The notes under the pieces are model-generated. The model saw only the letters and a list, made by a program, of their open reading frames with translations. It ran no database searches and was not told where the DNA came from. Position numbers and translations under genes: made by a program. DNA of 64,000 nucleotides from Microcoleus sp. (lineage in GTDB: Bacteria > Cyanobacteriota > Cyanobacteriia > Cyanobacteriales > Microcoleaceae), in NCBI GenBank assembly GCA_042408215.1, contig JAYFMW010000017.1, positions 384,001-448,000 of the forward strand, read 5' to 3'. Shown here piece by piece: positions 6,211 to 13,626 of this stretch. Positions within the stretch are counted from its first letter, which is position 1, and each line of letters opens with the position of its first letter.

Positions 6211-9200
6211 ATGACCGATCGCGACAAAACGAAAGACGAACTGATGGCAGAATTAGAGTTATTGCGCGGGGAAGTCGCGACTCTCAAGCAGACGGGGCGA
6301 TCGCATCCCCAAACCCATCTACCACAGACAACGCCCGAAATGGCAAATTTGACGATTCTCTTAGTAGATGATTCAGAAGTCGCTCGCGCTACCTACCGAC
6401 GATTTTTGATGCAGGATCGCGATCGGACCTACCAGATTGTCGAATTTGATAACGGCGAAGATGCTCTCGAATGGTGTCAGCAAAATATCCCAGATATTTT
6501 TCTAATCGATTACTGGCTACCCGATATGGACGGGTTAGAGTTGTTGCAGCAACTCCAGCAACAAACAGGGCGAAATACCCTTCCCGTGATTATGTTCACA
6601 GGTCAAGGAAATATCCAAATTGCCGTTGATTTACTCAAAAGTGGCGCTCAGGATTATTTAGACAAAAGCCAGATTACCCCTCAAAGTTTGCATCGATCCA
6701 TTAGCTATGTCCTGCGAAATAACCAACTGATTCGAGAACGGGAATGGCAACAACAGCAACAGCAATTCCTTGGCAAAACAGCACTTTCTATCCGCGAATC
6801 AATCAAAATAGAGGATATTCTCAACACTACGGTAAGGGAAGTCAGAAACATTCTTCAGTGCGATCGCGTGATTATTTTTCATTTTTCTCCTGGCTGGGGG
6901 GGGACAGTTGTTGTCGAGTCGGTTGCTGATGACAGTAAGGCTATTTTACCGCTCCAGATTTATGACCCTTGTATTGGGGAAGAGTACGTTGAACCCTTGA
7001 AAAAAGGTTTAATTACGGCAAAATCGGATATCTATAATTCTGATATTAGTCCCTGTCACATAGAATTTCTCGAAAGTTTACAAGTCAGGGCAAATTTAGT
7101 AGTTCCCATTCTCAAAGGAGATGAATTGTGGGGGTTACTGGTTGCTCATCACTGTACAGCGCCTCGCCCGTGGCAATCTTCAGAAATAGAATTGCTGCGG
7201 CAGTTGTCTGCACAAGTTAGTATTGCCCTTCAACAAGCTGATTTATTTGAGCAAGTACAAACGGAACTGAGGGATCGCAAACAGGCAGAAATTGCCCTAC
7301 AACAACTCAATGTCGAACTGGAACAACGGGTAATAGAACGAACAGGAGAACTAACGGAAGTAAACGATCGCCTGTTATTTGCCTTACTAGAAAAAGAACG
7401 CGCCTATCAATTAGTAAAGGAACAAGCACAACTGCTAGACCTGGCCCACGATAGTATTATCACCTGGGATTTAAACTCGGTTATTACCTTTTGGAATCAG
7501 GGAGCCGAGTTGATGTATGGTTGGAAAAAAGCAGAGGCTTTCGGGCAAGATTCTAATACTCTATTGAAAACTCAGTTTCCTCAACCTTTGGCTGAGATTG
7601 AAGCAGAACTGTTAGAAACAGGTTACTGGGAAGGAGAACTAATCCATTTCACCAAGTACGATCGCCAGATTACTGTATCTAGCCGTTGGGTTGTCCAAAA
7701 AGATGCTGCTGGTAGACCGATTAAGATCCTAGAAATTGACAATGATATTAGCGATCGCAAACAAGCCGAGGAGCTTTTGCAACAGAGTGAATCGACTCTG
7801 CGGAGTTTCTTCAATAGTGGCTCGATGATGATGGGAATCGTGGAAATTTACCCCCATGACATCTGCCATATTTCCAGCAATATCGCCACCTCTCAGTTTT
7901 TCGGCACTACGCCCGATGGAATGCAAAATCGTCTTGCCAGCGAGATGGGTATGCCACAAGAGTTTATAGAAATCTGGCTGAATTACTATCGGGAAGCGGA
8001 ACGTACTGGCGCTCCCGTGAAATTTGAATACAAGCATCGGACAGCAAAAACACCAAGATGGCTGTGTGCTACCACTTGCTCAATTGCCAACAGTTCCAGT
8101 AACCAACCCCGATTTTCCTTCGTTGTTGAGGAGATCACCGATCGCAAACAGGCGGAAGTAACTTTACTACAGAAATCCAGACAGGAACATTTGCTCTGGA
8201 GCATTACTCAAGCAATTCGCCAATCTTTAGATCTCAATGCCATTCTGAATACTGCTGTGACTGAAGTCAGGCAAACATTACAAACCGATCGCGTTGCTGT
8301 TTACCGCTTTAATCCCAATTGGAGTGGCGATTTTGTGTTCGAGTCAGTTGGTGAGGATTGGGTAAAATTGGTAGAAGCCGGTATTTGCAAAATCTGGGAA
8401 GACACCTATCTGCAAGAAACTCAAGGAGGTCGCTTCCGAAATAAAGAAAGCTTTGTTGTTAATGATATTTACAGGGCTGGACTTCAAACCTGTCATCTCG
8501 AACTATTAGAACAATTTCAAGCCAAAAGTTATGCCGTTTTCCCTATATTTTCGGGAGAAAATCTTTGGGGTTTGTTAGCTATTTATCAAAATGCTACACC
8601 TCGTAACTGGGAATCCTGGGAAATAGAATTATTGGAACAGATTGCCAGTCAATTGGCCATCGCGATTCAGCAATCAGAACTCTACGAAAAACTTCAGATC
8701 GAATTGCAAGAACGTCAGCAAGCAGCAGCCGTGTTAAGAGAAGCCGAACGACGCTGGCGATTTCTCCTCGACAATGTGCAATTAGTTGTGGTTGGGTTAG
8801 ACAAAACGGGTGCTGTTAATTACGTGAATCCTTGTTTCCTGAAACTGACGGGGTACACTGAATCAGAAGCTTTGGGTAAGCAGTTTTTTGAAACCTTTAT
8901 TCCTCTTTATGAACGGCAAGAAATGACAAGTATTTTATCCACAATATTAACAGATAATGGTCATCCATACTATCAAAATTTGATTCGGACTAAATCGGGA
9001 GAAGAACGATTTATTGCTTGGAATAATACCATCTTAAAAGATTCAGTGGGAAACAGCATTGGAACTATCAGCATTGGGGAAGATATCACCGAACGACAAA
9101 AGATGGAAAAAATTAAGGATGAATTTATTGGGATTGTCAGCCATGAACTTCGTACTCCTTTAACAGCCATTCAAATGTCACTGGGACTATTAAAAACTGG

Positions 9201-9798
9201 GATTTATGATAAAAAGCCAGAAAAATCCCGACGCATGATTGAAATTGCCCTACTCGATACTAATCGTTTGGTGCACCTGGTTAATGATATTTTAGATTTG
9301 GAGCGCATAGACTCCGGGCGGGCAGTTTTGGAGAAAACTGTTTGCAAAGCAGCCGATTTGATGCAGCAAGCAATTGATGGCATACAGGCGATCGCTACTC
9401 AACAGCAGATATCGCTAACTTTTACCCCCACCGATGTAGAAGTCTGGGCCGCAGTAGATGCGATCGTTCAAACCTTGACAAATTTGCTCGGTAATGCTCT
9501 TAAATTCTCGCCCCCCCAGTCCACCATCCACCTCAGCGCCGAAATCCAGACAGACTTTGTGCTATTCCAAGTTCGCGATCGGGGACGGGGGATTCCTGCC
9601 GATAAGCTAGAACTGATTTTTGCGCGATTTCAGCAAGTCGATGCCTCCGATTCCCGTGAAAAAGGAGGAACTGGGTTAGGCTTGTCAATTTGTCAGAGTA
9701 TTATTGAGCGACATGGCGGAAAAATCTGGGCTGAAAGTATTTTAGGTGAAGGCAGCACGTTTTTCTTTACTCTACCTTTACCAAAAACATGGGTCTAA
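6211..9798 (+). CDS. Hybrid sensor histidine kinase with REC, two cyanobacteriochrome GAFs, PAS domains, HisKA and HATPase
   Basis: GAF1 DPCI...SPCHIEFL (dual-Cys type); GAF2 WEDTYLQETQGGR...TCHLELL (red/green type); H-box VSHELRTPL; G2 box GGTGLGLSI. Confidence 0.93.
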   Translation: MTDRDKTKDELMAELELLRGEVATLKQTGRSHPQTHLPQTTPEMANLTILLVDDSEVARATYRRFLMQDRDRTYQIVEFDNGEDALEWCQQNIPDIFLIDYWLPDMDGLELLQQLQQQTGRNTLPVIMFTGQGNIQIAVDLLKSGAQDYLDKSQITPQSLHRSISYVLRNNQLIREREWQQQQQQFLGKTALSIRESIKIEDILNTTVREVRNILQCDRVIIFHFSPGWGGTVVVESVADDSKAILPLQIYDPCIGEEYVEPLKKGLITAKSDIYNSDISPCHIEFLESLQVRANLVVPILKGDELWGLLVAHHCTAPRPWQSSEIELLRQLSAQVSIALQQADLFEQVQTELRDRKQAEIALQQLNVELEQRVIERTGELTEVNDRLLFALLEKERAYQLVKEQAQLLDLAHDSIITWDLNSVITFWNQGAELMYGWKKAEAFGQDSNTLLKTQFPQPLAEIEAELLETGYWEGELIHFTKYDRQITVSSRWVVQKDAAGRPIKILEIDNDISDRKQAEELLQQSESTLRSFFNSGSMMMGIVEIYPHDICHISSNIATSQFFGTTPDGMQNRLASEMGMPQEFIEIWLNYYREAERTGAPVKFEYKHRTAKTPRWLCATTCSIANSSSNQPRFSFVVEEITDRKQAEVTLLQKSRQEHLLWSITQAIRQSLDLNAILNTAVTEVRQTLQTDRVAVYRFNPNWSGDFVFESVGEDWVKLVEAGICKIWEDTYLQETQGGRFRNKESFVVNDIYRAGLQTCHLELLEQFQAKSYAVFPIFSGENLWGLLAIYQNATPRNWESWEIELLEQIASQLAIAIQQSELYEKLQIELQERQQAAAVLREAERRWRFLLDNVQLVVVGLDKTGAVNYVNPCFLKLTGYTESEALGKQFFETFIPLYERQEMTSILSTILTDNGHPYYQNLIRTKSGEERFIAWNNTILKDSVGNSIGTISIGEDITERQKMEKIKDEFIGIVSHELRTPLTAIQMSLGLLKTGIYDKKPEKSRRMIEIALLDTNRLVHLVNDILDLERIDSGRAVLEKTVCKAADLMQQAIDGIQAIATQQQISLTFTPTDVEVWAAVDAIVQTLTNLLGNALKFSPPQSTIHLSAEIQTDFVLFQVRDRGRGIPADKLELIFARFQQVDASDSREKGGTGLGLSICQSIIERHGGKIWAESILGEGSTFFFTLPLPKTWV

Positions 9799-10243
9799 AG
9801 CCCCGTCCTTCTAGGACGGCTTTAATTATCTAAATTTCCGGTTCAAGGTTTCCGAAAATTAATTGAACAGTATGGTACAATAGAGTAATACTACAGGTAG
9901 AATAACCGCCGATAAACAGTGCGCACCAAGCTCAAACGACTGGTCGGGAAATAATAATGGTTAGTGGGTGGCGAACACCACGAAAAACATAGCTAGGGTA
10001 ACTAACGTAACCCAGACCAGAAAACTAAAATCTTGAATATTAAACGTACCGTGGGGCACAGGGAAACAAGAGAGGAAACTCTCTATCGCTTGGGGAGATC
10101 AGCCCTCTGGGATTGTCTAAGTTAGGCTCGAAACTTAGTTCTATTGAACGGGTTTTTGGTTTAAGTAATGCCGAAAGGATAGGCAATTTAAAGGTGTATC
10201 GGTGAACCAAGAATCCCCGCGCATTCATGCCGGGGAGTGTCAA
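9782..10243 (+). mobile_element. Non-autonomous IS200/IS605-family element (left end plus TnpB-type right end, no transposase or TnpB ORF)
   Basis: Follows TTAC (9778-9781); left-end hairpin AAAGCCCCGTCCTTCTAGGACGGCTTT; right-end hairpin GAATCCCCG...CGGGGAG ending GTGTCAA; no target duplication; the same left end recurs after TTAC at 13631. Confidence 0.85.
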
Positions 10244-10259
10244 CTAGCATTGATTAAGG
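10040..10259 (+). ncRNA. Putative TnpB omegaRNA (reRNA) scaffold plus ~16-nt guide from the 3' flank
   Basis: TACCGTGGGGCACAGGGAAAC...CGCTTGGGGAGA...AAGAATCCCCG...GGGGAGTGTCAA resembles cyanobacterial tnpB 3' ends; GAAA-capped hairpin AGAGAG-GAAA-CTCTCT. Confidence 0.65.
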
Positions 10260-10278
10260 CTCAGACGGTGTTGCAAAG

Positions 10279-10591
10279 GTAGGGACACGGCATTGCCGTG
10301 TCCCTGTTATGAAACACGGTAGGGACATGGCATTGCCCATTGGTGTCAACTTAAGCCTGGAACCCTTGATAAATATCGCTTTTACCTGAGTCTAGATCCC
10401 CCTAAATCCCCCTTAAGAAGGGGAGTAGGGGGTGACTTTGATCCATTTCCTGTCCCCCCCTTGCTAAGGGGGAGTAGGGGGCAAGCTAAGGGGGGATCGA
10501 AGTTTAATAGTTAAACAACAGTCTCTGACTGGGTTTGAAGTTAAGTTGACACCAATGGGCTCCTGGAGTGTCCCTAGGAGGATTGAACGAT
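10279..10591. mobile_element. Nested repeat: REP-containing MITE interrupted by a 20-bp-TIR MITE that itself carries a C/G-rich palindromic repeat
   Basis: TIRs GCCCATTGGTGTCAACTTAA (10335-10354) and TTAAGTTGACACCAATGGGC (10541-10560); the flanks match the uninterrupted element at ~25040-25150 in reverse; inner repeat at 10395-10498. Confidence 0.8.
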
Positions 10592-10625: not shown

Positions 10626-11005
10626 ATGACAGACAGACGAATTCTCGTAGTTGATGATGAAGAACACCTCCGGGAAGTGGTGCAGGCGTGCCTAGAAGAT
10701 TTAGGGGGATGGGAAACACTGGTGGCAGCTTCGGGAGAGGAGTGTCAAAAATTCTCCAAACAGAACAACCATCAGCCATTTTGCTGGATGTATCAATGCC
10801 GGGAATGGATGGGATTGTCGTGTACGATCGCCTCCAGTCCGATCCCATCACCCGATCGATTCCGGTGATTCTGCTGACAGCGAAAGTGTTGCCGGGCGAT
10901 CGGGCCAAATTTGCCAAAATGGGCGTTGCTGGGGTAATTTCCAAACCAATCCAACCCATCACCCTGACGGAAGAAGTGGCAGAAATTTTGGGATGGGTTG
11001 AATAA
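10626..11005 (+). pseudogene. CheY-like single-domain response regulator, frameshifted (1-nt deletion near 10746-10751)
   Basis: The ORF 10626 N-terminus and ORF 10688 C-terminus together match the intact paralog at 13249-13626. Confidence 0.85.
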
Positions 11006-11606: not shown

Positions 11607-11854
11607 GTCAACCACCCACCACTAATCGGAGTACCGATCTAGTGGGGGCAAGAAATTCGCCAAGTTGACCAGTCTGAGTGGTTCGCCCACTACGTTTAAG
11701 GTAAGCGTTAAAGTACCTACCAGAAAATGCGTGCTAGTTTTCTGCTCTAGAAATTAAAAGTTAAACAGGTGTAAGGGTTAAGCCAGTGCTTTTAATATAG
11801 TTACCGACCTTAAACATTGACGAAGCAAACATTACCCCGTAAGGGAGGACTTAA
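11607..11854 (+). ncRNA. IscB omegaRNA (HEARO-type) scaffold
   Basis: GTCAAC...GTTGACCAG pairing, CTACGTT, TGCGTGCTAG...GCTCTA, GTTAAACA, CCAGTG, AACATTGACGAAGCAAACATTACC; directly upstream of iscB. Confidence 0.85.
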
Positions 11855-13122
11855 ATGTCTAATTTTGTTTTTGTACTTGATACCAGAAAACAACCGCTCA
11901 ATCCAATCCGGGATTGGCTCGTAAGTTGTTAAACAATGGCAAAGCTGCTGTTTTAAAAAGGTATCCGTTCACGCTAATTCTGAAAGTAGAGGTGACAGCA
12001 ACCCAAAAATCAATCACTCTTAAAATAGACCCGGGTTCTCGAACCAGTGGAATCGCATTAGTACAAGGAGAGGACGTAATTTTTTGTGCTGAATTAACCC
12101 ATCGGGGTCAAACAATTAAATCGTCTTTAGAATCTCGTCGCTCATTGCGTCGGAATCGGATAAATCGTCATACTCGCTATCGTCAAGGGAGGTTCCTAAA
12201 TAGGGATCGCCCTAAAGGGTGGCTGGCTCCCAGCTTGCAACATCGTGTCGAAACAACCCTAACCTGGGTAACTAAATTGATGAAGCTCGCCCCCATTGCC
12301 TCGATTGTTCAAGAACTTGTACGGTTCGACTTACAACAATTAGAAAACCCAGAAATTTCGGGAATCGAGTACCAGCAAGGCGTTTTGTGTGGCTATGAGG
12401 TTCGGGAATACTTGCTCAACAAGTGGGATAGAAAGTGTGCTTACTGTGGTGTTACAAATACACCATTACAAGTCGAACATATTCATCCTAAAGCTAAGGG
12501 TGGTTCTAATCGCATTTCTAATCTTTGCCTTGCTTGTGAAAGATGCAATAAAAAGAAAGGTACTCAAGGTATTGAGCAATTCTTAGTCAAGAAACCAGAC
12601 GTTCTGAAGCGCATTCTTGCACAAGCTAAACGTCCTCTCAAGGATGCAGCAGCCGTCTACTCTACCAGATGGGCATTGTTCAATCGCCTTAAAGAAACGG
12701 GATTGCCTGTTTCGACTGGTTCGGGTGGATTAACTAAGTTCAACCGTACTCGATTGAAACTACCTAAAACCCATTGGCTTGATGCAGCTTGTGTTGGTCA
12801 AGTTGAGGAATTGTCCGTGTTAACAAACAAGCCGTTGTTGATTAAGGCGACGGGACACGGTACTCGACAAATGTGTCGCACGGACAACTTTGGATTTCCA
12901 TCTCGCTATGTTCCCAGGTTTAAATTTGTCAAAGGTTTTCAAACGGGAGATATCGTTAAAGCGATTGTAACCTCCGGCAAAAAAATTGGTAAATACGTTG
13001 GACGTGTTGCCGTTAGAACCAGTGGTTCATTCAATATTTCCGCATCCGAATTGGTGTCAGGAATTAGTCACAAATATTGTTCAGTTATTCACAGAAAGGA
13101 TGGTTATTCGTATGCAGTATAA
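11855..13122 (+). pseudogene. iscB: RNA-guided endonuclease IscB, N-terminal PLMP region out of frame; a 402-aa ORF remains from TTG 11914
   Basis: ATG 11855 after GGAGG reads MSNFVFVLDTRKQPLNPI then shifts frame; RuvC-I IDPGS, Arg-rich bridge helix, RuvC-II QELVRFD, HNH CAYC...EHIHPK...SNRISNL..ACERCN, RuvC-III HWLDAACVG. Confidence 0.88.
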
Positions 13123-13248
13123 ACCTTGCCCCCCTTTTCCTCTCGCCACTGACCAGGGTACAGGTACAGTGGGAGTCTCCAAGGGGGAAGACAGATGAAC
13201 GCTTTGCAAGTAGCTAATTGTTATGGGACTCTCCCGCGTGAACACAAG

Positions 13249-13626
13249 ATGATAGGCCGGCAGATTCTCGTAGTTGATGATGAAGAACATCTCCTGGAAC
13301 TGGTACAGGTGTGCCTGGAAGACCTCGCGGGATGGGACACCCTGGTGGCCGCATCAGGAAAAGAATGTTTACAAATCCTAGAAACAGAACGACCTAATGC
13401 GATTTTGCTGGATGTATCAATGCCGGGAATGGATGGGATTGCCGTGTACGAGCGCCTCCAGTCCGATCCCATCACCCGATCGATTCCGGTGATTCTGCTA
13501 ACCGCGAGGGTGTTGTCGAGCGATCGGGCCAAATTTGCCCAAATGGGCGTTGCTGGGATAATTCCCAAACCATTCCAACCCATCACCCTGACGGAAGAAG
13601 TCGCCGAGATTTTGGGATGGGATTAA
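13249..13626 (+). CDS. CheY-like single-domain response regulator (intact paralog)
   Basis: ILVVDD, ILLDVSMPGMDG, LLTA, PKPF motifs; alternative ATG at 13195. Confidence 0.9.
   Translation: MIGRQILVVDDEEHLLELVQVCLEDLAGWDTLVAASGKECLQILETERPNAILLDVSMPGMDGIAVYERLQSDPITRSIPVILLTARVLSSDRAKFAQMGVAGIIPKPFQPITLTEEVAEILGWD

Follow-up and report, generated by a model that had tools for sequence, protein, structure and literature searches.

A protein-free IS200/IS605-type element of Microcoleus with a predicted promoter, a predicted pseudoknot leader, and a TnpB-type guide RNA scaffold

PATEs often encode omegaRNAs that are acted on in trans, as reported in the available text of Meers et al. (10.1101/2023.03.14.532601). 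Standalone omegaRNAs likewise work in trans; their role is called unknown in PMC10691335 (citing Altae-Tran 2021), and the available portion of that paper does not address how such an RNA is made without a tnpB mRNA. Normally, TnpB trims its guide from its own mRNA, with 5′ trimming by the TnpB RuvC (PMC10278001), and both the 5′ region and stem 3b of the ISDra2 omegaRNA are dispensable (PMC10097598). Guide-only PATEs that use TnpB in trans are thus already in print (Meers et al.; PMC10691335). A previous sequence-only reading of the DNA described here had proposed just this lifestyle, that of an RNA-only parasite; the multiple copies, mobility, and lack of proteins reported below agree with it, but the idea itself is not new.

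The window is the whole 64,000-nucleotide stretch of Microcoleus DNA that was analyzed (contig JAYFMW010000017.1, positions 384,001 to 448,000; source genome G000). Inspection of its sequence identified a gene-less IS200/IS605 element of 462 bp (window positions 9782 to 10243; plus strand, as for the parts of the element and its host gene below unless noted), lying 3′ of TTAC (9778 to 9781) and terminating in TCAA. This tetranucleotide is the TnpA insertion site and the predicted TnpB TAM. The left end (9782 to 9822) holds the DNA guide AAAG (9797 to 9800) and a subterminal hairpin (9803 to 9819), and the right end (10214 to 10243) holds a second hairpin (10214 to 10236) followed by the terminal GTGTCAA; terminal inverted repeats are absent, as expected of a PATE. 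At locus L148, TTAC is immediately succeeded by the same 16 nt that lie beyond TCAA in the window, forming an exact empty site and showing that the element inserted without target duplication. These 16 nt of host flank (10244 to 10259) are the predicted guide, for which no target was found elsewhere in G000 within 1 mismatch at 10 to 16 nt. Locus L147 has nearly the same empty-site sequence, and the element was absent from all 19 orthologous kinase loci compared (36 other genomes had a kinase match). The orthologous TTAC at the kinase 3′ end of L165 carries another element, of 49 nt, in which IS605-type ends are fused; either this site was used independently, or the element is a remnant that has lost its core. 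The sequence-only reading had described an insert of this size after TTAC with two end hairpins, a TCAA end, and no target duplication, and each of these points is borne out; its predicted guide, with TTAC as the proposed TAM, matches the real empty site.

The element also alters the gene into which it inserted, a hybrid sensor histidine kinase (REC-GAF-PAS-HisKA-HATPase; 6211 to 9798), by supplying its last four codons and stop: the kinase C terminus reads PLPKTWV with the element and PLPSID in the L148 empty allele. Within the element, only one ORF reaches 50 aa or more, a minus-strand TTG frame of 67 aa, and the longest frames of sister copies range from 45 to 123 aa. Because these lengths vary, we conclude that the element has no conserved ORF; the sequence-only reading had seen no credible one. 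A tblastn comparison of 26 proteins from longer elements with the interior gave a best E value of 0.014, only at a TVGHT stretch that falls in omegaRNA stem 1. The interior is therefore not decayed tnpA or tnpB coding sequence, again as first read, except for a stretch that would be omegaRNA anyway.

Other features of the neighborhood were observed in passing. An HEARO RNA (11607 to 11835; Rfam, 133 bits) is followed by a 402-aa RRXRR+HNH ORF (11914 to 13122), a pair that makes up an IscB element, 1.4 kb from the gene-less element. A response-regulator gene (10626 to 11005) appears to be split by a frameshift into frames of 80 and 105 aa, and an intact paralog lies at 13195 to 13626.

The focal element belongs to a mobile, multicopy family. 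In G000, BLAST recovered 14 near-full copies with different flanks (74 to 100% identity), and profile and covariance-model searches alike found 21, including one diverged subfamily. Two sister copies in other flanks are 98% identical to the focal element, with 8 and 10 differences that fall largely within the left end; together with the shared ends and the empty allele, they support its annotation as a PATE without an ORF. The left end was found 44 to 223 nt upstream of the RNA in 62/71 type A copies with no tnpB in between, and the tnpB fragments seen at a few family loci are separate or on the opposite strand. Beyond G000, the element interior was matched in 29/36 same-genus genomes and a diverged copy in 35/301 genomes of the order, many in part only. 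Strong matches to a model of the leader described below (E < 1e-10) occurred in 11/151 genomes of the phylum, all within one order and three families; three of the weak matches (E of 4e-5 to 9e-3) were inspected, and none belongs to the family. When a single genome of each species was scanned with a pattern, 37 loci were returned, 34 cyanobacterial and 3 attributable to chance, from records titled Microcoleus, Nostoc, Phormidium, Aerosakkonema, Coleofasciculaceae, and Elainellales. Among the metagenome pattern matches, 49/61 were due to chance and all 12 strong loci belong to the gene-less leader family. The five matches in viral contigs were all chance, and the three in plasmids comprised the left end only.

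Some insertions are shared between genomes. One is retained at a position shared by six congeneric genomes (L035, L039, L041, L042, L043, and L044). At L097, L122, L243, and L176, two different subfamilies occupy the same flank, ∼30 nt before a gene that we take to resemble NAD kinase on the basis of its GGDGT motif; in L097, L122, and L243, no left end was found within ∼250 nt, yet the promoter and RNA are kept. We also observed a repeat of ∼16 nt inserted in the left ends of both family copies and tnpB elements (G000 C17:629132, C17:754729, C6:689553, C6:855177, and C20:547128), with similar small repeats inside the right hairpin of L013 and L100. G000 contains several other gene-less families (C20:265196-265480, C6:75537-75845, C28:257876-258261, C5:344678-345546, and C6:∼554800-555100) with the same kind of ends but different noncoding leaders, placed ahead of the scaffolds of other tnpB clades, suggesting that a leader plus an omegaRNA may be a recurring design. 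Of these families, the 386-bp one carries an exact boxA-like word.

Potential partners for the element are encoded in the same genome. Over 51/51 nt, the focal left end is identical to that of a tnpB element (C30:429581-429631), and since this segment (9782 to 9832) differs from both 98% sisters, the comparison suggests that left ends may be exchanged between elements. TnpB with all three RuvC motifs (Pfam) is encoded by 15/33 same-end elements of 1.3 to 1.4 kb, 11 of these after TTAC. No fewer than 15 intact TnpB genes in G000 thus share the element's ends, and candidate partners with the target motif TTAC are among them. Across G000 as a whole, there are 94 distinct tnpB 3′ ends and about 90 tnpB loci. 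The profile favors the MLVFEF clade of TnpB, which likewise has a hairpin after stem 1. TnpB relatives, present in 43/46 genomes checked, were too common to discriminate. Two tnpA genes adjoin the same left hairpin in G000; however, the elements to which they belong (tnpA plus tnpB) target TGAC, not TTAC. In the family, TTAC is paired with the left-end guide AAAG in 39/62 copies and TTAT with AAAA in 15/62. Target and left-end guide therefore covary, a pattern that would follow from target choice by the DNA of the element itself; in that case, the TnpAs of the TGAC elements could move the TTAC-type family.

The 3′ 195 nt of the predicted RNA read as a TnpB omegaRNA core enlarged in stem 3. Stem 1 (10049 to 10063) has a loop, GGGCA, that is predicted to pair with 10238 to 10241 in a TnpB-type terminal pseudoknot; in the focal copy and its sisters, this stem contains a G-G mismatch (10051/10061). 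A GNRA-capped hairpin (10070 to 10083; 5/5 pairs with changes on both sides) is followed by stems 2 and 3 (10089 to 10211; helices 11 to 16 of our model). The stem 3 arm (10111 to 10188) is ∼55 to 65 nt longer than in same-end tnpB elements, an enlargement located where ISDra2 tolerates deletion. The family and the same-end tnpB elements have in common stem 1, CGCTT.GGA, and an end composed of GAACCAAGAATCCCC, the hairpin, and GTGTCAA. As in a standalone omegaRNA, the scaffold is homologous to a tnpB 3′ end and stops at the right end, and the TAM and flank guide together rebuild the empty site. Profile matches to tnpB ends spanned model positions 126 to 249 and never the first 125. Thus, the tnpB-3′-like scaffold placed at ∼10040 to 10243 by the sequence-only reading is supported by homology, but that reading missed the 150-nt covarying pseudoknot leader in front of it.

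Covariation supports a conserved fold across both parts of the RNA. We aligned 28 of 30 copies at <95% identity, excluding L013 and L030. RNAalifold predicted 70 pairs, of which 22 had changes on both sides. In a hand-refined model, 92.7% of cells were paired, compared to 30 to 43% for slid partners, and 25/81 pairs covaried (0/500 shuffles); this model was partly drawn from the RNAalifold prediction and leans toward it. Its totals include two helices, 4 and 7, that were placed according to the focal copy and do not line up in the alignment (24 and 70% paired, respectively). Since the alignments contain related copies, these counts are not independent events. Taken singly, the focal sequence folds only weakly better than shuffles (z of −1.3 and −1.6). 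The terminal pseudoknot between the stem 1 loop and the last nucleotides was paired in 98% with no compensatory change, and because it is invariant, its assignment rests on homology. Exchanges of G-U type are frequent, and GNRA loops are present.

Upstream of the scaffold, the first ∼150 nt form a non-tnpB leader consisting of a multistem front domain, an H-type pseudoknot, a variable hairpin, and the conserved ACCAGAAAA. The front domain of the focal copy (type A; 9890 to 9961) has a closing helix (9890 to 9893/9958 to 9961), a hairpin (9896 to 9907), and a stem (9909 to 9913/9943 to 9947); type A helices 1 to 3 were paired in 99, 99, and 94%, with 5 pairs changed on both sides. The predicted pseudoknot (9964 to 9995) comprises S1 (9964 to 9967/9978 to 9981), S2 (9969 to 9972/9992 to 9995), and an A-rich loop 3. 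Across 30 sequences, it was 80 to 85% paired with 20 to 23 compensated cells (0/500 shuffles), and the S1 register shifts by one base between subfamilies. The next part of the leader (9996 to 10024) contains the variable hairpin (9996 to 10013) and ACCAGAAAA in unpaired form (10016 to 10024).

The pseudoknot distinguishes the family from resident tnpB elements: the 21 gene-less copies are the only G000 loci that carry it, and every tnpB locus lacks it. The leader was always accompanied by an omegaRNA end, both in the strong G000 matches (21/21) and in the 8/8 further strong matches inspected (one without a clear right end) and 12/12 strong metagenome loci (one cut by the contig end). In different subfamilies, the same pseudoknot is preceded by different front domains, no fewer than four, with no relationship apparent by eye. 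In one distant copy (L049), it is joined to a scaffold that is 80% identical over 127 nt to that of a different tnpB clade, a single joint that indicates that the leader is a swappable module. The covariance models of Rfam 15 had no match over the element (E ≤ 5) or in 18 family loci (E ≤ 2). Two candidate resemblances were rejected. A likeness of the type A start to RNase P was reached by 13/500 shuffles in one of five domains and by 222/500 for the focal copy. A likeness of ACCAGAAAA to the rRNA boxA signal lacks the TT of the boxA in G000's own ITS, and only 1/17 copies came within one mismatch, at a position inside the pseudoknot. Separately, the type C front domain (L079, L081, L084, and L107) terminates in a word that falls one base short of matching the rRNA spacer boxA of the genome.

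These additions to the omegaRNA core admit other roles. The leader could be a functional RNA in its own right, such as a self-cleaving ribozyme or a ligand- or protein-binding module, with the omegaRNA part doing no more than maintaining the element. The covariation of the leader's fold, its pseudoknot, its exchange of front domains, and its junction with a different scaffold in L049 are in line with this idea; however, it matches no Rfam family and never stood apart from an omegaRNA end at the loci inspected, and we consider an independent function quite unlikely. It is also improbable that the RNA acts as a decoy or damper, binding TnpB while the leader and enlarged arm block cutting and thereby allowing host or element to limit TnpB damage. 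Such a role would fit the conservation of large additions across families, the abundance of tnpB in G000, the inhibition of cleavage by part of a tnpB mRNA (reported in the available text of PMC10278001), and the copies that persist at one site in several genomes or have no recognizable left end (L097 and L122). In contrast, the additions fall in regions described as dispensable in ISDra2 (PMC10097598), and copies that are still moving retain the target motif jointly with both ends, as expected of a selfish guide.

An internal promoter is predicted from a conserved −10 box. In the focal copy, TGGTACAAT (9873 to 9881) comprises TG and the hexamer TACAAT, with a predicted start at ∼9888. A TAnnnT hexamer was found 9 to 12 nt upstream of the RNA start in 60/62 distinct promoter regions (shuffles: mean 10, maximum 19). 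A TG extension was present in 18/62 and a −35 box in 3/62, and the presence of either (20/62) was not clearly above shuffles (mean 12, maximum 22), so the hexamer alone is well supported. The extended −10 box of the sequence-only reading is present in the focal copy; across the family, its hexamer is conserved, its TG mostly not. A sigma-70 scan of the element returned no site, owing to the lack of a −35 box. The spacer around the −10 box is 42% identical, compared to 81 and 79% for the two RNA halves, and RNA length is narrowly distributed (median of 354 nt; range, 345 to 391) relative to the left-end spacer (44 to 223 nt).

Sequences from RNA libraries are compatible with transcription of the element but do not demonstrate it, since they are contigs without strand or transcript ends and may originate from DNA. 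Part of the element is contained in 14 RNA runs; we compared eight runs chosen for holding it, seven RNA runs and one of unidentified kind. Contigs span the interior; three of them continue beyond the right end into the focal flank, with 0 differences (X6, 10175 to 10318; X4, 10031 to past 10330; and X12, 10068 to 10264). X4 and X6 extend at least 75 nt past TCAA, and X12 stops 21 nt past it (one contig from one study). The kinase flank had no coverage in 6/7 RNA runs, which carries no evidential weight because the runs were picked for holding the element. Downstream, abundant genomic palindromic repeats lie at 10278 to 10337 and 10340 to 10560, and a hairpin in the first of these (10281 to 10305) could be the transcript end.

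Taken with the folds, the promoter bears on two further readings. In IS608 and ISDra2, TnpA requires only the element ends. The conserved folds could nevertheless act in single-stranded DNA during TnpA transposition, given that IS200/IS605 elements move as top-strand DNA (10.1101/2023.03.14.532601), the strand that bears the pairs. We find this very unlikely: the −10 box keeps a fixed distance upstream of the fold, G-U exchanges and GNRA loops are characteristics of the fold, part of it is homologous to omegaRNA, and sequence between the ends is not needed by TnpA. Equally remote is the prospect of a neutral remnant, left after deletion from a tnpB element. PATEs are described as arising by deletion (PMC3119063), and the 3′ part reads TVGH like tnpB. 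The pseudoknot also bears a faint likeness to RuvC-III codons (22/94 top-5 ranks versus ∼13 expected, with nothing for the cognate clade), although this comparison is weak, using five pseudoknot strings, one a false capture, and related tnpB genes. Against this, the first 150 nt showed no tnpA or tnpB similarity in the 26-protein translated search or by profile, and compensatory changes, a fixed RNA length, and a conserved promoter recur across several families; covariation already largely refutes a neutral remnant.

The explanation that we consider probable is a guide-only, protein-free mobile PATE with its own promoter, whose RNA would load resident TnpB in trans to cut the empty TTAC site. 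In the proposed cycle, Y1 TnpA from either of the two tnpA+tnpB elements with the same hairpins would move the element as single-stranded DNA, with the element's own AAAG selecting TTAC as the target. Transcription from ∼9888 through the right end into the flank would yield an RNA of ∼370 nt, whose 3′ 195 nt would fold into a TnpB scaffold, with the extra arm placed where ISDra2 needs nothing. TnpB made by other elements would be loaded with this RNA and guided to the empty TTAC site, and cutting of excised or never-filled sister chromosomes would allow recombination to restore the element. The 150-nt leader would replace the lost tnpB mRNA context, most likely by stabilizing the untranslated RNA and aiding its folding and its competition for, or loading onto, TnpB, which may afterward trim the leader off.

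A more speculative extension, to which we give limited credence, is that guide-only parasites attach the pseudoknot leader, as a portable RNA module, to scaffolds of different TnpB clades as a substitute for the missing mRNA, allowing their RNA to outlast and outcompete the enzyme's own guide. If so, TnpB hijacking in trans would have its first defined RNA device, which would also be a natural stabilizer for engineered omegaRNAs. Should the leader raise RNA stability or TnpB loading, the persistence of guide-only parasites would be explained, and compact genome editors could be improved; if the leader does nothing, the element is a well-documented but ordinary PATE. The family offers a defined test: it combines a predicted promoter of its own with a leader that covaries, an empty site that was verified, candidate TnpBs with the same target motif in the same genome, and natural swaps of front domains and scaffolds.

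IStrons, which combine a group I intron with IS605 or IS607, end in G, and splice, resemble this element in having a structured RNA within IS605 ends and in inserting inside a gene. However, the element has no Rfam group I intron match, ends in A (TCAA) rather than G, and has an internal promoter, and no left-to-right end joint was found in the seven RNA runs, whose contigs show presence rather than absence; an IStron was therefore rejected. The pseudoknot leader is absent from Rfam and from the openly searchable literature examined. The available main text of PMC12873609 contains no transposon terms, though its supplement might list the leader motif, and the available text of PMC9956272, PMC3610870, and PMC12558985 holds nothing further on it.

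Among described elements, the PATEs of Haloquadratum have the same subterminal palindromes, lack terminal inverted repeats and target duplication, are likewise too short for a transposase, and show the same insertion of small repeats into end hairpins (PMC3119063; PMC4810608); in contrast, they are described as deletion products, and RNA function is not considered in the available text of PMC3119063. The PATE-like elements of Geobacillus stearothermophilus (10.1101/2023.03.14.532601) are alike in having no protein genes, IS605 ends, and TnpB and TnpA in trans, but a dedicated promoter, a leader at the 5′ end, a pseudoknot, an enlarged arm, and a family conserved across several taxonomic families do not figure in the available text. 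With the ISDra2 omegaRNA (PMC10097598), the predicted RNA shares a stem 1 loop with the potential to pair with positions −3 to −6, stems 2 and 3, a right-end hairpin, and a flank-derived guide; the 5′ region of ISDra2 overlaps tnpB and is disordered and dispensable, whereas here it is noncoding, structured, and conserved. Finally, like the standalone omegaRNAs of PMC10691335, the element is mobilized without an effector or transposase of its own, but differs from what is described there in its modular leader and in an RNA whose length is ∼2.5 times that of the cognate scaffold.
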